Source of the DNA: an uncultured Nitrososphaerales archaeon
GTDB lineage: Archaea > Thermoproteota > Nitrososphaeria > Nitrososphaerales > Nitrososphaeraceae
Length of the DNA stretch: 64,000 nucleotides
Direction: 5' to 3'
Assembly (NCBI GenBank): GCA_963713605.1
Contig: CAVQMO010000001.1
Coordinates: 992,001 to 1,056,000 of the forward strand
A program made the translations under genes and the position numbers. The first letter of the stretch is position 1; each line of letters opens with the position of its first letter. Below, piece after piece: positions 43,794 through 62,497 of this stretch. The notes beneath the pieces are model-generated. The model was given only the letters and a program-made list of their open reading frames with translations. It made no database searches and was not told where the DNA came from.

Positions 43794-44219
43794 ATGCAGA
43801 CGGTGATATACGTGGTTAGAGAGTTTAAGTTTAAAGGTTATCTATCTGAACAGCTGCAGGCATTACCTATAGAATCACTTTTGCCACTTTTGAACTCAAG
43901 ACAGAGGCGATCTTTGGATAAAAGAGTGGGCAAATTCATGACCGATGAAAAGAGAAAACTCCGCGAAGAGATTAAGCGAAATAGGGAAGGAAAGTCGACT
44001 GACGAGATAAAAACCCACCTTAGAGATATGATTATTCTTCCGGATATGATCGGAGTGACTATTAAAGTCCATAATGGAAAGGAATTCATTCCAGTAAGTA
44101 TAAGACCAGAGATGGTTGGCCATTACGTAGGTGAGTACTCTATCACTAACAAACGCGTTCAGCACGGAGCTCCTGGAGTAGGTTCATCAAGATCGAGTCT
44201 ATACGTCCCCCTAAAGTGA
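43794..44219 (+). CDS. rps19: 30S ribosomal protein S19
   Basis: KTHLRDMIILP, HNGKEF, GHYVGE, VPLK. Confidence 0.96.
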   Translation: MQTVIYVVREFKFKGYLSEQLQALPIESLLPLLNSRQRRSLDKRVGKFMTDEKRKLREEIKRNREGKSTDEIKTHLRDMIILPDMIGVTIKVHNGKEFIPVSIRPEMVGHYVGEYSITNKRVQHGAPGVGSSRSSLYVPLK

Positions 44220-44226
44220 ATGTATT

Positions 44227-44701
44227 ATGCCAGAGTATGGATATGCTGTAGAAAATTTCGACAAGTCAAGACACGTAAGAGCCTCTATAAGGGACAAGTC
44301 TGCCTCGCATAAGCATGCTAGAGAGGTAGCAGTAGCTATTAGAGGAATGTCGATTGAAAAAGCGCGCCTATTTCTTGAAGATGTGATTGGCAGGAAAATA
44401 GCTGTGCCATACAGAAGATACAATAACGAAGTTGCTCATAGATTTAATATCCGTGATGGCTTTTGCTCAGGTCGATATCCTAAGAAGTGGCCAAAGAAGT
44501 GTTGAAGTTGTTGGACAATTTGGAGGCAAATGCTGAATATAAGGGGATGGATTTGGATGCTTTGAAGATCACAAGTACCGTAGTACATAAAAGTACAAGA
44601 TCAAGAGATTTACTCCTAGAGCTATGGGAAGATCTAGTCCCAAGTACGATACATTGATACATTTTGAGATAGTTGCACAGGAAAAGAGGGTTCATGAATG
44701 A
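44227..44701 (+). CDS. rpl22: 50S ribosomal protein L22 (2 frameshifts)
   Basis: SHKHARE, VPYRRYN, GRYP; NAEYKG and PRAMGR in the shifted frames. Confidence 0.93.
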
Positions 44702-45421
44702 GTGCTATCAATAATGTAATGAAAAATAATTTTAGAAATCTCGAGTTAGACGAGTTTCTTTCGGAAACTCTAAGAGATGCAGGATATGGACGCGTAGATG
44801 TGCAAAAGACGCCAATAGGAACAAGAATCACCTTAAGTGTTACTCGTCCGGGATTAGTGATTGGAAGGAAAGGCACTGGGATAAAAGATTTAACATCAAA
44901 GTTGGAACAAAAATTTGGTTTGTCCAACCCTCAGATCTCTGTCGTTGAACTCGAGGCTCCGGAGCTGAACCCTAAGATTATGTGTAATAGAATCGCACAA
45001 TTGATTGAAAGAGGAACTGCATTCAGAAGGGCCGCAATATGGACAAATAACACGATAATGAATGCAGGTGCTTTAGGCGTTGAGATTACCGTAGCAGGTA
45101 AGCTGAGAAGTGAAAGAGCCCACTTCGAAAAGCACGCTGTAGGTCTAGTACCAAAGAGTGGTGATGTAGGCTAACAAGGTGGTGAGACATGGAGTCACTC
45201 ATGTGCTTACAAAGATGGGATTGATGGGCATACAGTTGAAGATAGCGCTTAAAAACGAAATGCCAAAGGAGTTCGAGATGATAGATTCCGAAACTTCACT
45301 TGTTACTGACAAAACGACGGAAATCCAGAAGCAGGAAAGTACAGTGCAAGCTGGAGGTGAAGACAAAAAGACCGTTGAGGGAAATGTATCTGTAGCGGCG
45401 GAAGGAAAAAACGATGGGTAG
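44698..45421 (+). CDS. rps3: 30S ribosomal protein S3 (one extra G near 45170)
   Basis: KTPIGT, RPGLVIGRKG, FRRA, GKL..ERA, GLMGI. Confidence 0.95.
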
Positions 45422-45621
45422 AATTAAGCTAAAGGTATTACGCGAAATGAACGATAGGGATCTTACAGAGAAACTGGATGAACTAACTTCTGAGTGTAAC
45501 AAAGCTGAGATCTGAGGGTGCGAAAGGCACATTAAAGAAGGAAACAGCGAGTATCAGATGGACCAGGAGGGATATTGCGAGAATCAATACGATACTCACA
45601 GAGAGGGTCGAAAACCATTGA
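45414..45621 (+). CDS. rpl29: 50S ribosomal protein L29 (frameshift near 45495)
   Basis: MGRIKLKVLREM...RRDIARINTIL; operon position. Confidence 0.88.
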
Positions 45622-45884
45622 TAACAAGTGAGAATTTGATTTTCCATGAATTAGTCGGACTCTACGCCCGCACGTTCGATTCTGGTCCATATTCTGGGCT
45701 ATCTGGGTATATTGTTAAGGAAACAAAGAACATGATCACTCTTAGATCTGGTGAGGTACTGAAGAGTTTGCCAAAAAATTGTATTAATATTAGGTTAACT
45801 CTTCCTAATTGCGGTTGCTTTATAAGTGGAAACAGTCTGATAGGGAGACCAGAGGACCGAATTGTAAGGAAGAGCTTGGGATGA
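45618..45884 (+). CDS. rnp1: Ribonuclease P protein component 1 (Rpp29/Pop4)
   Basis: NLIFHELVGL, G.IVKETKNM, GRPEDRI. Confidence 0.9.
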   Translation: MITSENLIFHELVGLYARTFDSGPYSGLSGYIVKETKNMITLRSGEVLKSLPKNCINIRLTLPNCGCFISGNSLIGRPEDRIVRKSLG

Positions 45885-45887
45885 ATT

Positions 45888-46211
45888 ATGGTTAGAAATA
45901 TTGGTATTTCTGTGTCTCCGCCCCGGAGGTCCTGTGAAGATATACATTGTCCTTTTCACGGTAAACTCTCGGTTAGAGGTCGAGTTTTTACCGGTACTTT
46001 AGTTAGTGCTAAAGCTCGAAAAATGGTTGTAGTCGAACATCAATATTCTAGGCCGGTAACAAAATACAAAAGATTTGAAAGGAGCAAATCAAAAATGCAT
46101 GCATATGCTCCCGAATGTATGGATGTAGTTGAAGGAAAACGGGTACGGATCGCAGAATGCCGGCCTTTGACAAAGACGGTTGCTTTTGTGGTGATAGAGG
46201 TGGAACAATAG
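45888..46211 (+). CDS. rps17: 30S ribosomal protein S17
   Basis: CEDIHCPFHG, KYKRFE, ECRPLTKT. Confidence 0.96.
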   Translation: MVRNIGISVSPPRRSCEDIHCPFHGKLSVRGRVFTGTLVSAKARKMVVVEHQYSRPVTKYKRFERSKSKMHAYAPECMDVVEGKRVRIAECRPLTKTVAFVVIEVEQ

Positions 46212-46646
46212 ATGTCCTCTAAGTCAAGAGCTGTTTCGGCAAAAGGCGTGGAGGAATTCAGGCCCTATGTTACAAGAGCACTACCTATGTCTGCTAGTTT
46301 GGTGTGTGCAGATAATACCGGCGCCAAGATTCTTCGCATTGCTCAAGTAAAAAGATTTAAGGGGCGGCATTCCCGTTTACCGTCAGCTGCGGTAGGCGAC
46401 TTTGTAACCGTGACCGTCAAGAAAGGTCCGGCAGAGTTAAGAAAGCAAATTTTTGGCGCAGTAATAATTAGGCAAAAATACCCTGTCAGAAGGTTAAACG
46501 GAAATAGATTAGTCTTTGAAGATAACGCTGCGGTATTGGTCACTCCTGAGGGTGAGATCAAGGGGACAGACATAAAAGGGCCGGTGGCTGCAGAGGCTGC
46601 TGAAAAATGGCCGAGAATTGCAAATTTGGCTGCACTAATCGTTTGA
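46212..46646 (+). CDS. rpl14: 50S ribosomal protein L14
   Basis: CADNTGAK, FEDNAAV, GPVA.E. Confidence 0.97.
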   Translation: MSSKSRAVSAKGVEEFRPYVTRALPMSASLVCADNTGAKILRIAQVKRFKGRHSRLPSAAVGDFVTVTVKKGPAELRKQIFGAVIIRQKYPVRRLNGNRLVFEDNAAVLVTPEGEIKGTDIKGPVAAEAAEKWPRIANLAALIV

Positions 46647-46671
46647 ATGATGAATGGAGTAGAGAAATATT

Positions 46672-47112
46672 TTGACAAATAGATTAATAGGCGTCGTCTC
46701 AAAGAATTTGACAGAACGCATACTGAGGTCTCCTCTTTCGCGTGCCCTTCGGGAAAAATATGGAAGACGCAACTTAAGAGTGATTGCCGGAGATACAATC
46801 AAAGTATTTCGTGGTGAATACAGTGGTATCGAAGGAAAAGTTGAAAAAGTTAACATGAAGCGGGGAAGTCTCGCTATTGAAGGTATTCAAAGAGAAAAGG
46901 TGCGGGGAGGAAATGTAAAGGTGGAAATTAATTCTACTAATGTAGTAATTACCGATTTGGATTTGGATGATAAATATCGACAAGCTCTGATTCAAAGAAT
47001 TCATGAACCAGAGAAAAAAAATCCGAGTGAAAAGAAACATAGAGTTAGGAAACAAACCAAGCGACATTTAATAAATAAGAGAAAGAGTAAAACCAAAGGA
47101 GGAGAGAAATAG
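46672..47112 (+). CDS. rpl24: 50S ribosomal protein L24
   Basis: LSRALREKYG, GDTIKV.RG KOW motif. Confidence 0.93.
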   Translation: MTNRLIGVVSKNLTERILRSPLSRALREKYGRRNLRVIAGDTIKVFRGEYSGIEGKVEKVNMKRGSLAIEGIQREKVRGGNVKVEINSTNVVITDLDLDDKYRQALIQRIHEPEKKNPSEKKHRVRKQTKRHLINKRKSKTKGGEK

Positions 47113-47114
47113 AT

Positions 47115-47834
47115 TTGGCAAAGAAGGGAGGAGATACTACTGTCAAGAGGCAGCGTGCTCCTTCATTTTGGAAAATTAGACGAAAGCAAGGCCAATTTGT
47201 GGTCCGTGCAAGACCGGGGCCCCACCCTAAAGCTATTTGTTATCCGCTTGGGATTCTGCTTAGAGATGTATTAGGAGTCGGTCAGAACATGGACGAAGTA
47301 AAAAGAATGCTCAATGATGGAAAGGTATCTGTAGATGGAGTTGTAAGGAGAAGCATTGGTTGGCCGGTAGGACTAATGGATATTATAGAGCTGATTCCCT
47401 TATCACAGGCCTTCCGTTTAGTACCAAAAAATAGGAATCTCTTGGTCCCAGTTCTTCTTTCAAAACAGACCGAAAAGAGCCTAAAATTGCTAAGGGTAAC
47501 ACTTAGGAAAACGATTAAGGGGAAAAAAACACAATACGGTTTTCATGACGGTAAGACGTTGATTGGGACTGAGCAGTATTCCGTGGGAGATACATGTTTG
47601 GTTGATCTCTTGAATAAAGAGGTCAAGTCACATATGAAATTAGAGAAAGATTCAATTGTCCTTGTTACGAAAGGCGAGAATGCAGGTGCTATTGGAAAGA
47701 TTGAAGAAATTCGTGAGGGCCTTTTCTCATTGCCTAGACGAACGGTGGTTTCATTTGGTGATAGGTCAGTTGATTTACCCGTACAGATGGTCATGTTGGT
47801 CGGTGACGAAGAGCCGATAATTCAGGTGAGTTAA
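47115..47834 (+). CDS. rps4e: 30S ribosomal protein S4e
   Basis: KRQRAP.FW, PGPH, VDG.VR, PVGLMD, HDG. Confidence 0.95.
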   Translation: MAKKGGDTTVKRQRAPSFWKIRRKQGQFVVRARPGPHPKAICYPLGILLRDVLGVGQNMDEVKRMLNDGKVSVDGVVRRSIGWPVGLMDIIELIPLSQAFRLVPKNRNLLVPVLLSKQTEKSLKLLRVTLRKTIKGKKTQYGFHDGKTLIGTEQYSVGDTCLVDLLNKEVKSHMKLEKDSIVLVTKGENAGAIGKIEEIREGLFSLPRRTVVSFGDRSVDLPVQMVMLVGDEEPIIQVS

Positions 47835-48362
47835 ATGGGTACGGATACTTCGAGTTCGGAAAATATTATGAGAAGGATTTCTGTGGGGAAGGTTGTTATC
47901 AACATCGGGGTCGGTAAATCTGGAGAACCTGTTGAAAGGGCTAAGCATGGCTTAGAAGATTTGACTGGTAAAATTCCGAATGTGACAACGGCTAAAAAAA
48001 ATTTGCGAGATTTTGGAATTCACCAAGGAGAACCGATCGGAGCGATGGTGACACTGAGAAGGAAGGATGCAACAGATTTCTTGAAAAGGTGTTTAGAAGT
48101 TAAAGGCAATAAGATGAATATCAGTTCCTTCGATAATTTTGGCAACATTTCTATGGGCATACGTGAACATATAGACATCCCTGGTACGAAATACAACCCA
48201 GATATAGGTATCTTTGGCATGAACGTCTGCGTTAGTTTGGTGCGGCCAGGTTATAGCATTTCCAAGAAAAGAGGTAAGAGTAAGATCGGCAAAGGACACC
48301 GGATTAGTAAGGATGGGGCAATTGAATTCTTTACAAGCGGATTCGGAGTTGAAGTATTATAA
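47835..48362 (+). CDS. rpl5: 50S ribosomal protein L5
   Basis: [28 protein letters not shown]. Confidence 0.96.
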
Positions 48363-48541
48363 TGCCAAAACCAAGAGATTATGAAATTACCAAGAGGAGA
48401 AAAATTGTCCATGGTAAGGGTTCGAGGTGGTGCAAGAGATGTGGTGCGTATAATGGATTGATACAACAGTATAAATTGTTCCTATGTAGACAGTGTTTTA
48501 GAGAAGTTGCCCAGCACTTGGGCTTTTACAAGTACGAATGA
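48362..48541 (+). CDS. rps14: 30S ribosomal protein S14 (Zn-type; 59 aa, absent from the ORF track)
   Basis: Manual translation MPKPRD...[11 protein letters not shown]...[16 protein letters not shown]. Confidence 0.95.
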
Positions 48542-48563
48542 ATGGGAGGATGATAATGGTTAA

Positions 48564-48957
48564 ATGCCAGCATTAAATGTGTTAGCAAATTTGCTAAATA
48601 CCCTATATAATAACGAATCGAGAAGAAAAAAGGAGTGTATTGTTGTGCCTGCGTCTCGATTCACTAGCGAAGTCTTACGTGTTATGCAGAAACATCATTA
48701 CGTCGGCGAATTCGAACAAATTGACGATGGAAGATCGGGGAAGTTTCGTATTCAACTTCTAGTCTGCTATAAACAAATGTGGGATAGTTACTCCAAAGTA
48801 TAGTGTTAGAAAGAATGGCTATCTTGATTGGGAAAGACGATACTTACCTGCATTTAGCATGGGTGTATTGATTGTCTCAACGAGTAAAGGTGTTATGTCA
48901 CATCACGAAGCCCAACAGCTTGGTTTAGGTGGAGTCCTAGTGGGTTATGTGTACTGA
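48564..48957 (+). CDS. rps8: 30S ribosomal protein S8 (frameshift near 48765)
   Basis: [29 protein letters not shown] in the shifted frame. Confidence 0.94.
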
Positions 48958-48976
48958 AAAAATTCCGATTGAGAAA

Positions 48977-49510
48977 ATGAGCGTTGATCTAACAATACCT
49001 TTAGAAGTAACTGTATCCAAAAAAGAAAACCATATTCAAGTTAGTGGAAAGTTAGGAACCCTAAGAAAAGATCTGTCGAAAATTCCGATAAAAGTGGACA
49101 TCGTTCAGGATAGTATTAAAATTTCCTCGTACGGAAAGAGGAAGAGAGATTTTGCGATCATTAACACTGCAAAAAGCATTTTGAACAATATGATCCGTGG
49201 GGTAGAGCAAGGATACACTTATCGATTAAAAATTGTTTTTGCGCATTTCCCCATCTCTGTTAAGGTAAAAGGTTCTGAGGTTCATGTTGAAAATATTTTT
49301 GGTGAGAGAGCACCAAGAATAGCCACGATCGTGGGCAGTAATACAAAAGTGAAGACAAGTGGCGATGACGTATTGGTAACCGGACCGAGTATTGAAGACG
49401 TGTCTCAAACTGCTGCAAATATAGAGTCATCAACAAAGATAAAGGGCAAGGACCAGCGGGTATTTCTCGATGGATTATACATTTATTCTAGAGAACCCGG
49501 AATCACGTAG
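48977..49510 (+). CDS. rpl6: 50S ribosomal protein L6
   Basis: FAHFPI, N.FGER.PR, QTAANIE, KD.RVFLDGLY. Confidence 0.96.
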   Translation: MSVDLTIPLEVTVSKKENHIQVSGKLGTLRKDLSKIPIKVDIVQDSIKISSYGKRKRDFAIINTAKSILNNMIRGVEQGYTYRLKIVFAHFPISVKVKGSEVHVENIFGERAPRIATIVGSNTKVKTSGDDVLVTGPSIEDVSQTAANIESSTKIKGKDQRVFLDGLYIYSREPGIT

Positions 49511-49681
49511 AAACATGTGTTAATCGTAGGGTTAATGTTAGAAATTGGAAGTATATTTATTCCATATATTTCAAATCTCGAGTTTAGAAAGATGTTATTT
49601 ATGGCCAGCATTTCATATGCTAGTAAGTTATTTTGGAGATGTAAAACGGGCTCAAGCATACCTTTTAATTGATTAAGAGGA

Positions 49682-53288: not shown

Positions 53289-53398
53289 CGCCGCTGATCA
53301 GACTCGAACTGATGACCCACTGGTTAACAGCCAGCGAATCTCCAGAGGAGTTTTCCAAACCACGCTAGAATTGCTCTACCATGCTGAGCTACAGTGGC
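53289..53398 (-). tRNA. tRNA-Asn(GTT) with 36-nt non-canonical intron (approx. 53335-53370, position 27/28)
   Basis: GCTC/GAGC D-stem; removing the insert gives a perfect ACTGG-CTGTTAA-CCAGT arm; ATCAG-TTCGAGT-CTGAT T-arm. Confidence 0.9.
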
Positions 53399-53699
53399 GC
53401 AATATTGCATAGCATTATTGGACAAATTAAATGTTGTGTTACACTAAATAATAGGAAATAATTCATCATCTCTCCGAAAGGAGTTAATTGACCTGCATAA
53501 AATCAATAGGAACCCCACCTGTACCCATGATAAAAATGTCGTGATTAAGTTGTCATAACATTATTTGGTCAGACTAGATTGCTTAATTTGTCGATTCTAG
53601 GTAGGGGTTATAGCCAGCAAAATATGGAGTTGTTCATAGCATAATAGGCAAACTACACTGAAGTCTATTCTCTGAATTGTGTTAACAGGGAGGCTTTCA

Positions 53700-53865
53700 A
53701 GACATTATTTGGTCTTTGACGAATTTCGTAAACAATCTGATAATGTCTGACAGTTCAGAAAAGGACCCATTTCTGAATTGTCCAATAAAGAGAACGTTTT
53801 TTTTACTTTGGAAAGCTGGGGAAATTGGGGCTTCGTTTGAAAAGGTGGAGATACCCTTTTTGAAC
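53700..53865. repeat. Cluster of imperfect palindromes (candidate res/recombination site) upstream of a serine recombinase
   Basis: 53700-53748 palindrome; 53749-53782 GACAGTTCAGAAAAGG-AC-CCATTTCTGAATTGTC (14/16 arm match); 53835-53865 GTTTGAAAAGG-N9-CCTTTTTGAAC. Confidence 0.65.
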
Positions 53866-53930
53866 TTTTTGTCTTGGATGGTTGACAATTTGTTTAAATA
53901 ACCTCATAGACGGCTTGCTATAATTAAGTC

Positions 53931-54521
53931 ATGTACGCATTCGCCTACCTAAGGGTTAGTACCGAAGAACAGACTGTTATGAATCAGAAACTTGTTCTAG
54001 ACAAATGGGCTTCAGACCATGATTTTGATATTCTCTCTTATTTCGAAGACTCGTCCGTAAGTGGAAGAATTCCAGCAATTAGGAGGCGTGCTTTCAGGGA
54101 TATGCTCGAGATCATTAAAGCAGATTCCGTAGATGCCATATTAGTATATGAACTTTCCAGAGTCGGGAGAACATTCTGGGATACGCTTGACGCGATAAAA
54201 GCCATTGAAGAATTTGCTCCGTTGATTTCTTGTTCACCACGGGAAACTTTCCTCCAGAGCACTGAACCCAGTGTCAGAAAGTTGATGATAGGCATACTCA
54301 CTTGGGTTGCAGAAAGAGAACGAGAAATGCTGGTCCAACGAACCAAGGATGGTATGAAGAGGGCTAAGGAATTCGGCAAAAGAATTGGAAGGCCACAGGC
54401 GATGATAGATAGGAACATGCTTGTCAAACTGCTTGCAGACAACGCTCCCCGTTCTAGGATTGCAAATGATTTAGGGATTTCGAAAGCGACGCTATATAAG
54501 GAGTTAAGACAAATGCAGTGA
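53931..54521 (+). CDS. Serine recombinase (resolvase/invertase) with C-terminal HTH
   Basis: YLRVST (catalytic Ser), SG...R, LSRVGR, AEREREML..RT..G, GRP, LGISKATLY. Confidence 0.95.
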   Translation: MYAFAYLRVSTEEQTVMNQKLVLDKWASDHDFDILSYFEDSSVSGRIPAIRRRAFRDMLEIIKADSVDAILVYELSRVGRTFWDTLDAIKAIEEFAPLISCSPRETFLQSTEPSVRKLMIGILTWVAEREREMLVQRTKDGMKRAKEFGKRIGRPQAMIDRNMLVKLLADNAPRSRIANDLGISKATLYKELRQMQ

Positions 54522-54557: not shown

Positions 54558-55872
54558 TTATAGAAGCCGCTCAACTTTCTCAATAATAAAGCCTATGATG
54601 CTCATTAGGTACTCCAGATTTTTCCTGTCAATGGCGAGTGGAGGGATCAAAACTATTGTATTTCCCAATGGCCTCAAGTAAACCCCCGAATTTAGCGCGG
54701 TTTTGAAGATGAAAGAATCAACAGGTTCGCCCGTTTTCTTTCTTATTGCGTCTATCCCTCGTTTTGAAATGTCTAAACCAGCAAGCATTCCTTTGTGTCG
54801 CACATTGATCACAGCTGGAGAATTCTGAAACCCATACAATCTCTTCCTTATGTGTTTTGATTTCAAAGAAATATCCCGTATTAGACCTCTTTTTCTATAC
54901 AATTTCAAATTAGCAATTGCCGTAGCGCAACCGATTGGATGTCCGGAAAAAGTATGACCATGATAGAGTATAGCTTTTCTATCAAGGAACGATTTAAATA
55001 CTTCAGAATTCGTTAGAGTAACCGCTAATGGCGTGTAACCTGCAGTCAGGGCCTTACCGAAGCAGACGATATCTGGAATTGAATCTTGTTTCAAATATTC
55101 TATCATATTTCCAAGCCTACCGAATCCTGTGGCGATCTCGTCCAAAATGAGGAGAACCCCGTGCCTATTGGACAACTCGGCTATTTTCTTTTGATATCCT
55201 TGTGGATAAATTCTTATCCCACCTGCAATTTGGGCGCCGCTCTCCATTACTACAGCACAGGTCTTCGCAGAAACCTTCTTCAGACAAGATTCGGTTTCCT
55301 CAAGGATCTCATCTAACCCCGATACGGGCTCGCTCAACTTTAAGGAAGGACTAGGGAGTCGAGTCACCTTTGTCAATAGTGGTCTGTAGGCGGAAAAGTA
55401 TCGAGGGACATACCCCACAGACATCGCCCCAACTGTGTCACCATGATAACCATTTCGGAGGGAGACGAAATGTCTCTTTTCCGGCCTGCCCCGATTCTTA
55501 TAATATTGTATGGCCATCTTCATTGCAACTTCTACTGCAGTCGAACCGTTATCTGAATAGAAAACGTGCTCCATCCCTTTAGACAATCTTAATAATTCTA
55601 CTGAAAGTTCTATGGATGGTTTATTTGCTAGACTAAAAAGACTAGAATGTTGAAGCGTACTGATTTGGTTTTTCATTTCTCTGATGATTCTCTTTCTCTC
55701 CGTGACCCCAAACATTGCACCACATACTTGAAACACTGTCAAGGTATTGTCGACCTTCCGAATCTATAAGATGGAACCCCTTTCCTTTCGTTATTATCTT
55801 AGTCGTTGAGCTGTCCCACTGGTACATATCTGTATATGGATACCATATGTGATGCTTACTGGTAAGAGCCAT
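54558..55872 (-). CDS. bioA: Adenosylmethionine--8-amino-7-oxononanoate transaminase (frameshift near 55700)
   Basis: IWYPYT, SSMWCNVWGH, GSTAVE.A.K, YHGDT, DEIATGFGR, GKALT. Confidence 0.95.
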
Positions 55873-55909: not shown

Positions 55910-56591
55910 GTGAAGGGATTATTTGTCACTGGAACCGATACCAATATTGGAAAGACATTCATAGCCTGCACGATAACGAAGGTTCTAAAGGAAAACGGGG
56001 TTGACGTAGGAGTAATGAAACCATTTGCTACTTCTCATAAGCGATACTCTTCAACTTTCAGATCTGAGGATGCATGGAGACTTTCTCACGCTGCCGAAGG
56101 TAGTTGATCCCGATGAATTAATAAATCCTTATTTCTATCAAATTGGAACAGCTCCTTTCCTTGCGGCAACTATGAGCGGAAAGCCAACTCCCAACTTAGG
56201 TTTTGCAGTCAAGAAATTGCGAAGACTTTCAAGGCAACACGAGTTTCTTGTGGTGGAAGGAATTGGAGGGGTTATGGTGCCTATCTCTAAGAAGGAGACC
56301 ATTTTAGATTTTATCAAGATGGTTGGATTTCCTGCCATCATTGTGACGTCGCCCAAACTAGGTACTATAAACCATACACTACTCACATTCCAAGCTTGTA
56401 GTAATAGGAAAATTCGGGTATATGCAATAATCATCAATAAGAATCCCGAAAAAAAATCTAAGACGCAAGACTGCCTCCCATTGTTACTTTCTGCACTAAC
56501 GGGGGTAAAGAGGGTAATTGAAATCCCAAGAATTCGAAACGCTTATACTTTAAAAAACATTGAAAAATTAATTGCAACAGATTCTTTTTGA
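55910..56591 (+). CDS. bioD: Dethiobiotin synthase (frameshift near 56098)
   Basis: FVTGTDTNIGKT, KP, VEG.GG..VP, LGTINHTLL. Confidence 0.95.
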
Positions 56592-56619: not shown

Positions 56620-56657
56620 AATGATATCTTTCAAAACTCGATATTTGAAATATCATT
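56620..56657. repeat. AT-rich inverted repeat between convergent bioD and bioF
   Basis: AATGATA(TC)TTTCAAA ... TTTGAAATATCATT. Confidence 0.4.
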
Positions 56658-56858
56658 AGATGTTCGGATTTGATTTCCATGACTAAATTCGACCTGCGAT
56701 AATTTTTTGAGATTGGTTACTCGCATAAATCAATATCTTAATTGACAGTCATTATTTGAGCTCAAGCACTTCTGAACCTAACTAACTTAAACGCCTTCTA
56801 CCTATCCGTCCAGATATTTCTAATTTCGAATTCTGAAATATGGAATGAAAATATCTTT

Positions 56859-59016: not shown

Positions 59017-59134
59017 TAATATATGGGAGAATACTAAATCATATAATTAACTTTCGGATTCATATGTACAAATCAAGAGCTTTCACAATACGAAATTTGA
59101 AATATTTTAATAATTTTCTATTGTAGAGAATTCA

Positions 59135-61158: not shown

Positions 61159-62497
61159 ATGAAAAAGAATGCGATAAAGAAATGCATTAACCCAAAATGT
61201 GGAAAAACTTTCAATATAGTAAGCGAAGCCTATTCATGTTCTTGCAATTCTTTGTTAGATGTTACCTACCTTGACAGACCGAAAAAGGAGTTAATAGAAA
61301 TATTCTATTCACGAAGGAATCACGGTGGAAACATATACAATGAAAGCGGGGTATGGCGTTTTCGCGATCTTGTTAATTTTCTCGGAATTGATACAGAAGA
61401 TTTGAATGAATGCGCAAAAATACTTGTATCTCTCGACGGGGCAGAAGGGAGACTCTCAAAACCATATCGGATGAGTAAAGTTGCAGAATACGTCAACTTG
61501 AAACAGGACTGCCTCTTACTACAGCCAGAGGGCTACAATCCGAGCGGATCATTTAAGGACAATGGCATGTCTACTGCAATAACACACGCGAAAGCTACTG
61601 GCGTGAACAAGATTATCTGTGCATCGACCGGAAATACCTCTGCTTCGGCAGGCAATGTACGCGGCCAACGAAAATATGAGATGTGAGGTTTTTATCCCAA
61701 AAGGAGAAATTGCTGCTGGAAAACTGGGCCAGGCGTTCCAATTTGGTGCCCAAGTAATTCAGGTAGAAGGAAACTTTGATGATGCTCTCAATCAATCGTT
61801 GGCAAAGGTAAATCTCCACAATGGATACACTGTGAATTCTGTGAATCCTTTTAGGTTGGAAGGGCAAAAGACAATAGTATACAGGATTTTAGAGAACCTA
61901 GATTGGAACCCTCCGGACTGGCTAGTATATCCTGGTGGAGCGCTGGGAAATACCGCTAGTTGTGGAAAATGCTTGATGGAGTTATATGATTGGGGATGGA
62001 TTAAGAAGATCCCTCGGATAGTTATTGTGAATTCAAACGGTGCAAATACGTTCTATGAACTAGCAAATGGCAAATTTGAAGGTCAAAAACTTACCTGGAA
62101 TGCTGGAAATTTCGACACCAGTCTATTGAAGAGGTACTATTTCTACAAGGATAGCAAGGGAATACTGCCTAAAACTAGGGCTACGGCGATACAAATTGGA
62201 AAACCGGCAAACATCGCTAAGGCTCTTCGAACGATAGAATTCACAAATGGACTAGTAGTACAAGTCGATGACAGGGAGATGAGTCATGGTATGGCAGTAG
62301 TAGGTCTGAATGGGTTTGACTGTGAAATGGCATCTGGCGCTGTCCCTGCAGGCATCAAATCATTAAGAGAACAAGAGGTGATAAAAAAGGACGATATTGC
62401 CGTAGGGGTGCTAACCGGGAGGCAGAAGGACCCAGCGTTGGCGGTAGAATACCACTCAGACCCAAAAAATAAGTTCGCGAGGCCCCCAATTGTTTAA
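61159..62497 (+). CDS. thrC: Threonine synthase (frameshift near 61652)
   Basis: N-terminal Zn ribbon, [44 protein letters not shown]. Confidence 0.93.

Follow-up and report, generated by a model that had tools for sequence, protein, structure and literature searches.

Small serine recombinases of the Tn3/γδ resolvase type belong to transposons with a cognate transposase and act on a res site beside the resolvase gene, in which a crossover site with a 2 bp core is accompanied by accessory sites with other spacers. In Tn3 res, site I is set apart from the adjacent sites II and III. The spacers of sites II and III are 9 bp apart and that of site I exceeds the one in site III by 3 bp, according to the accessible text of PMC9943657. 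Sin of Staphylococcus plasmids and, by prediction only, t26-31p of the Thermococcus plasmid pT26-2 are plasmid multimer resolvases, which have one site per replicon. The DNA invertases Hin, Gin and Mpi are also small serine recombinases; they use a 12+2+12 site with an asymmetric core, and two inverted sites flank the segment on which they act. The known chromosomal counterparts are the Xer/dif systems (XerS/difSL, XerH/difH and archaeal xerA/dif), in which one recombinase of tyrosine chemistry is inherited vertically and encoded beside a single site of 28–31 bp in the terminus region. To our knowledge, chromosome dimer resolution has so far been credited only to tyrosine recombinases.

The accessible text of PMC8371274 states that archaeal serine recombinases have been seen in transposons and never fully investigated, and that of PMC6563490 mentions thaumarchaeal serine recombinases only for IS607. 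We found no description of the locus considered here, or of any serine chromosome-dimer resolvase, in the literature searched (including the accessible text of PMC8987985); most subscription journals and supplements fell outside its scope, and the gene may figure there in arCOG or core-genome tables.

The locus lies in a 64,000 nt window of the genome of an uncultured Nitrososphaerales archaeon of the family Nitrososphaeraceae, and all DNA coordinates given below are those of this window. It carries a single-copy, vertically inherited serine resolvase gene and one conserved array of sites opposite the origin, and we consider it likely that the enzyme resolves chromosome dimers or unlinks sister chromosomes in place of XerA/dif. 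The enzyme family itself is known; what we propose as new is a chromosome-resolving role for a small serine recombinase. The protein is a member of that family and neither part of a Tn3 element nor a member of Xer/dif, yet it is placed and distributed like Xer/dif.

The resolvase ORF (53931–54521, plus strand) encodes 196 aa with an N-terminal catalytic domain and a C-terminal helix-turn-helix (HTH). Profile searches bear out the original prediction of an intact enzyme with a catalytic motif and an HTH, with 101 bits against PF00239 (cut-off 23.3) and 21.8 bits against HTH_7, the latter slightly below the cut-off of 23.8. In the predicted structure (pLDDT 89), a long helix E is followed by a three-helix C-terminal HTH (helices at residues 113–147, 161–169, 174–181 and 185–195), and the nearest PDB match is Tn3/γδ resolvase, both by sequence (4e-14) and by predicted fold. 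Fold, domain order and catalytic residues are shared with that enzyme. Residues Y6, R8, S10, Q14, Q19, D40, R77 and R80 are invariant; they include the counterparts (Y6, R8, S10, D40, R77 and R80, unchanged in 52 of 52 cases) of Y6, R8, S10, D36, R68 and R71, the six residues given as crucial in Tn3 resolvase in the accessible part of PMC2794168. Asp67, which the same source describes as non-essential, is replaced by Ser. The gene is the only one in its genome with a PF00239 match. Identity as an IS607 serine transposase was considered and ruled out, because the HTH is C-terminal, the neighbour is bioA and not tnpB, and the gene is single copy.

Selection on the gene was estimated in three genera, leaving out pairs that had dS ≤0.05 or were saturated. 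Median dN/dS was 0.042 (64 of 78 pairs), 0.058 (50 of 78) and 0.079 (23 of 45), and the highest figure was 0.134. Because dN/dS is low and the residues crucial in Tn3 are invariant, the resolvase is, as judged from these sequences, a core gene maintained for catalysis.

Upstream of the gene lies an array of predicted sites. Predicted crossover site I (53753–53778) consists of two inverted 12 bp half-sites around an asymmetric AC core at 53765–53766. One base past its end begins predicted accessory site II (53780–53806), with 12 bp half-sites and a 3 bp spacer. The site III region (53835–53890), a predicted accessory and autoregulatory element, has a weakly kept left half and a strongly kept right half (53853–53865), followed by a conserved block that ends in TTGAC directly before the promoter. 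A TATA-like element assigned to the resolvase gene from its sequence occupies 53893–53900 on the plus strand, and its TTAA is kept at the same spacing. To the left of site I, motif A (53719–53729) is an 11 bp palindrome of different sequence and a candidate site for an accessory protein. This fixed array of motif A and sites I, II and III is present in 48 of 49 aligned loci, and an overlapping set of named loci, from which two with short flanks were dropped, scores for it in 36 of 40. The distance of motif A from site I is 23–24 bp in 45 of 48 loci. Site II is separated from the right half of site III by 45–47 bp in 35 of 48, and the shorter gaps mostly lack about 10, 20 or 40 bp, four cases excepted. 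A further three complete genomes, of genus g2, all carry motif A, site I and site II, with a degenerate site III. In two loci of that genus (L133 and L134), the place of the site III region just before the start codon is taken by a direct repeat in which the end of site II recurs with its flank.

The palindromes alone are marginal, as resampling of the intergenic region gave equal arm scores in 2 of 60 versions for one and 1 of 60 for another, and we judge the array real because it is conserved, not on palindrome scores alone. A fixed-score palindrome scan of upstream regions returned few matches, and the conservation became apparent only after alignment. In three soil-type metagenomes there are contigs that cover the whole array and differ from it at few positions, and the array is thus not an artefact of assembly. 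An Rfam search gave a tRNA as its only match above the gathering score, and a sigma-70 promoter scan, for which the model is ill-suited to archaea, stayed at chance level.

Alignment also sorts out the palindromes in the original prediction. A 34 bp palindrome with core AC (53749–53782, 14 of 16 arm positions matching) is indeed present, and its inner 26 bp are conserved across the family. The same is true of a second palindrome with a 9 bp spacer (53835–53865, 9 of 11), which is strongly conserved in its right half. A 49 bp palindrome (53700–53748, 18 of 24) exists as well, and what is kept of it is the central 11 bp; its outer arms vary even within the genus, as does an extra 10-mer half-site at 53671. 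Site II and a set of flanking 28 bp palindromes described below had been missed. The reading of the upstream region as the enzyme's own res site gains support from the array, which is conserved in 48 of 49 loci with the predicted Tn3-type crossover geometry of inverted half-sites and a 2 bp core beside the gene.

The arrangement differs from that of Tn3 in several respects. Site II abuts site I and has a 3 bp spacer, the spacers of sites I, II and III being 2, 3 and about 9 bp; there is an additional 11 bp palindrome; and the core is asymmetric. As had been foreseen, no transposase or integrase gene occurs among the annotated neighbours, which are core genes; unlike Tn3, the gene is chromosomal, single copy and vertically inherited, with no surrounding element. 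Motif A is placed where a host accessory protein might bind, and the Sin system likewise leaves room for one (accessible text of PMC9943657).

With its 12+2+12 layout, site I may resemble hix of the invertases. Its core reads AC, GT, AA, TT, TC or GA and is symmetric in 0 of 48 and 0 of 36 loci. Such an absence of symmetry no more than hints at a crossover role, because GT looks like a flipped centre and flips from AC to GT can also arise through template switching.

Vertical descent, which had been named as a check of the original prediction, holds for the gene. Among 120 genomes of the family (completeness ≥90%, with the source genome and one unpublished genome, G126, counted), 114 carry the resolvase as a single copy. 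Orthologues were found in 32 of 36 other family genomes and, as one weak, long match, in 1 of 24 genomes from other families of the order. A quick maximum-likelihood tree built from 82 proteins shows the family as one clade with support 100; the 25 labels require 24 changes, which is the minimum, and each genus falls on one side of a branch. This single-copy distribution follows the genera, and a patchy, mobile-like spread was not seen.

Synteny with bioA and a tRNA-Asn gene had been named as a further check. It holds for the bioA-type aminotransferase gene (54558–55742, minus strand), which adjoins the resolvase gene in convergent orientation in most of the family; it does not for the tRNA gene (53289–53398, minus strand), which is adjacent in the source genus only (13 of 13). 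Rfam confirms the tRNA, whose anticodon was read from the sequence as Asn (GTT). Its intron lies at a non-canonical position, and the default tRNA scan misses the gene while the intron option miscalls it. Integration at this tRNA was ruled out, as the resolvase gene lies 5′ of the tRNA and the adjacency is confined to one genus. Elsewhere among the neighbours, rps3, rps8, bioD and a threonine-synthase-like gene are each split over two frames (44698–45421, 48564–48803, 55910–56591 and 61159–62497, respectively), possibly through long-read indel errors. One genome (G023, contig C12, locus L014) is an exception to the general arrangement, with an intact resolvase gene that has neither the array nor bioA and lies on a different contig from the 28 bp palindrome cluster; another palindrome occurs about 125–165 bp upstream of this copy.

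The closest plasmid match to the resolvase is t26-31p of pT26-2 (41.5% identity, 7e-45), compared with 1e-20 for the best bacterial match listed. The accessible text of PMC2926602 describes t26-31p as a putative resolvase whose nearest homologues are archaeal. In the quick maximum-likelihood tree, t26-31p branches beside a clade comprising the source family and families f26, f44 and f53, and its upstream region, with tandem palindromes of similar look, aligns qualitatively with theirs on those palindromes. Viral contigs yielded only one distant relative of the resolvase (31%). The system may thus have begun as a plasmid multimer-resolution cassette related to t26-31p, which would have become fixed in the ancestor of the family inside an older cluster of palindromes marking the terminus.

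Such an ancestry invites the explanation that the locus is a plasmid relic, retained as a regulator or through linkage to the biotin genes and without a role in chromosome resolution. The convergent bioA gene at most loci would suit linkage, and related families manage without the resolvase. We nevertheless find this explanation quite improbable, given catalytic residues invariant in all 52 cases, dN/dS that nowhere exceeds 0.134, and an array that points at the resolvase gene rather than at the bio promoters; the array is absent elsewhere in the genome, and there is therefore no regulon.

Single occurrence of the site bears directly on how the enzyme could act. A site model built from 35 loci outside the source genus scored the window site at 51.7 bits, and the next match in the 4.09 Mb source genome (87% complete) at 4.9 bits, where the maximum in shuffled sequence was 12.2 bits. 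A two-site pattern had exactly one match in five of the six complete genomes and none in the sixth, which has a diverged site II and in which site I was found alone; used as a pattern by itself, site I gave extra matches at the control level. The second site whose existence had been left open in the original prediction was thus found in none of the genomes scanned (the source genome and the six complete ones), and each chromosome holds one site, as in Xer/dif systems and, per replicon, in plasmid multimer resolution. With one site per replicon, the recombinase could act only after replication or on foreign DNA.

The latter option would make the enzyme a host-kept excisionase, integrase or invertase that acts on a partner site in plasmids or viruses, or on an unlike sequence elsewhere, the array serving mainly as an operator. 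Several observations fit this reading: descent from a plasmid gene, overlap of site III with the promoter region, the presence in G023 of the gene without the array, and a top NCBIfam match to the invertase family Mpi (75.5 bits, far under the cut-off of 272). In one genus (L020, genome G025), moreover, the cassette of gene plus site is inverted relative to the tRNA and neighbouring genes. Against it, the genomes scanned hold no second site, inverted or otherwise, of the kind that flanks the segments of Hin, Gin and Mpi; viral contigs hold only the one distant relative; and contigs of four of four metagenomes, which tend to drop rare forms, revealed neither strand switches nor joints at site I. 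It also leaves both the position opposite the origin and the exclusion of XerA unexplained, and we regard it as unlikely.

A conventional xerA with its dif site would have weakened the case for dimer resolution. No genome of the order had a match above the cut-off of the XerA model (0 of 61), compared with 4 of 14 controls. Eight tyrosine recombinase matches in the source genome were rejected as XerA, as they reach at most 77 of the 220 bits needed. The three best XerA-like matches in the family were set aside too, as they lie beside unrelated genes on short stretches.

Across 301 genomes of the phylum, 63 are positive for a resolvase relative and 66 for XerA, and 2 have both, versus about 14 expected; the thresholds were our own (E ≤1e-15 for resolvase relatives and E ≤1e-45 for XerA), and related genomes are not independent. 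Resolvases are nearly fixed and XerA is missing in families f26 (whose relatives carry the name Bathyarchaeia), f28 (which we take to include Pyrobaculum), f41, f42 and f44, and the reverse holds in f22, f30, f35, f36 and f43. In the XerA-positive families, PF00239 genes are patchy, often multi-copy, and match a shorter part of the profile, from which we infer that they are of IS607 type. This phylum-wide exclusion pools proteins of possibly separate systems, because for most distant relatives the family site I model gives no significant match in the upstream region: 6 of 30 reached p ≤0.05, with low scores and several of them inside coding DNA, and we do not count these six as evidence. Neither XerA nor a resolvase relative was detected in 174 of the 301 genomes. 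Family f13 of the same order (presumably Nitrosopumilaceae) has an XerA or PF00239 protein in 0 of 50 genomes, f27 has one in 0 of 11, and the complete f13 genome G188 has no PF00589 match, that is, no tyrosine recombinase. With f13 lacking both, an enzyme of the XerA or resolvase type is not needed by all these archaea.

Families f28, f41 and f51 (L115–L132) have a serine recombinase with an HTH and an added C-terminal zinc ribbon, beside which no array is recognisable. It is single copy and near-fixed in XerA-less families (21 of 22 genomes in f28, 11 of 11 in f41), and is a candidate for the same role.

The position of the array was measured in the six complete genomes, each of which has one pair of origin boxes, beside the main cdc6 gene; the accessible text of PMC5797428 places the origin at origin boxes and a cdc gene. 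From the array to this pair the distances are 168, 143, 161, 174, 170 and 175°, the terminus itself being placed from the origin boxes, and this range compares with 122–180° from oriC for archaeal dif sites (PMC5357621, accessible text). The origin boxes thus bear out a terminus-region location of the kind suggested at the outset in 6 of 6 genomes; the skew terminus that was to confirm it did not emerge, as GC, AT and third-position skews on five contigs of the source genome gave no usable signal. None of 12 control genes stays beyond 110° throughout the five genomes tested. Because gene positions correlate within the two genera (rank correlation 0.79–0.97) and not between them (−0.09 to −0.34), the six genomes amount to about two independent lineages, and a chance of about 0.04 for the array position comes from rough hand arithmetic on about two independent draws. 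The bioA gene and the ribosomal-protein operon share this position, a point against the proposed reading. This large operon (43800–49510) ends at a terminus-region cluster of palindromes in most of these archaea. Ribosomal-protein operons usually lie near the origin, the reverse of the situation here.

The cluster consists of a separate 28 bp palindrome and lends the position of the array independent support. In the window, one copy follows rpl6 (49566–49593), two lie in the gap where bioD and bioF converge with their 3′ ends (56626–56653 and 56814–56841), and a weak copy with two mismatches (12.9 bits) lies upstream of bioB (59078–59105). None of these three strong copies and one weak copy is more than about 5 kb away from the resolvase gene, and together they form the only such cluster in the source genome. 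One tight cluster was found in 22 of 28 genomes searched, where reversed-pattern controls gave 0–2, and the palindrome was not found in six other families searched. In 10 of 10 complete genomes of f13 and f9, both without the resolvase, 150–177° separate the cluster from cdc6, and in two of these genomes it is detached from the ribosomal-protein operon and still opposite cdc6. Because the same cluster lies opposite cdc6 in families without the gene, the resolvase cassette is an insert peculiar to this family within a terminus-region cluster that extends across the order. A CdvB2-like cell-division homologue was noted a few kb or less from the cluster in 11 of 19 stretches (for example, L225, 4312–4965), not including the present window.

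These palindromes raise the alternative that they are themselves the true dif equivalent of ammonia-oxidising archaea, served by an unrecognised enzyme, with the resolvase as a back-up or as a local topoisomerase-like or architectural helper. Their length of 28 bp and 11+6+11 geometry are those of dif, which the array does not have. They form the single cluster described above also in families without the resolvase, and the complete genomes of three ammonia-oxidiser families have them opposite the origin in 16 of 16 cases. About 50 tiny viral contigs (L249–L304, mostly 4.1–4.7 kb) carry one exact copy each, much as dif-exploiting elements do. However, a genome has two to five copies, whose central hexamers are near-symmetric, the clusters share no recombinase-like ORF, and G021, like G188, has the cluster with no PF00589 match. 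In 14 viral contigs examined, the copy is intergenic, mostly between divergent genes, and looks more like a protein docking site. We give this alternative little credence.

We return to chromosome resolution by the serine resolvase itself. In the mechanism that we propose, resolvase dimers would bind predicted sites I, II and III, and Ser10 would cut the core of site I with a 2 bp stagger, while sites II and III together with a host protein at motif A would build the synapse. Binding at site III might also repress the promoter of the resolvase gene. Recombination would take place between the two copies of site I that a chromosome dimer or a pair of linked sisters contains, much as in plasmid multimers; because there is one site on a monomeric chromosome, a pair can come together only once replication has occurred, as a direct repeat on the dimer or on linked sisters. 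The system would share with Xer/dif its single terminus-region site, the gene beside that site, the use of one recombinase and vertical inheritance. Unlike Xer/dif, it has serine and not tyrosine chemistry and an array of about 170 bp with several sites, and it occurs where XerA is missing; unlike that of plasmid resolvases, its proposed substrate is a chromosome of 2.5–4 Mb. The vertical single-copy gene, the conserved site, the missing second site, the missing XerA and the position together favour, at the level of genome sequence, the original idea of a domesticated chromosomal resolvase system.

Direction control is the main gap in this proposal, because Tn3-type filters need negative supercoiling (PMC9943657, accessible text), yet 0 of 5 genomes searched yielded a gyrase A, a further difference of this host from that of Tn3. 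As to partner proteins, archaeal XerA works without FtsK, according to the accessible text of PMC2958812.

On a wider scale, we suggest tentatively, and with less assurance than the role proposed for this locus, that serine resolvases replaced XerA in several archaeal lineages, namely the Nitrososphaeraceae and the XerA-less families that keep one full-length relative. They could have done so with neither gyrase nor FtsK, in a hitherto undescribed terminus domain whose marks are 28 bp palindromes that tiny viruses exploit as well. If the proposal for the Nitrososphaeraceae is true, a new answer will be needed to how a resolvase achieves directionality on a multi-megabase chromosome without gyrase. 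The locus also offers a sequence marker of the terminus in genomes without usable skew. For these globally abundant soil nitrifiers, it supplies a named enzyme with an exact site and a prediction of where the cut falls, and so turns the resolution of their chromosomes into a directly testable question.
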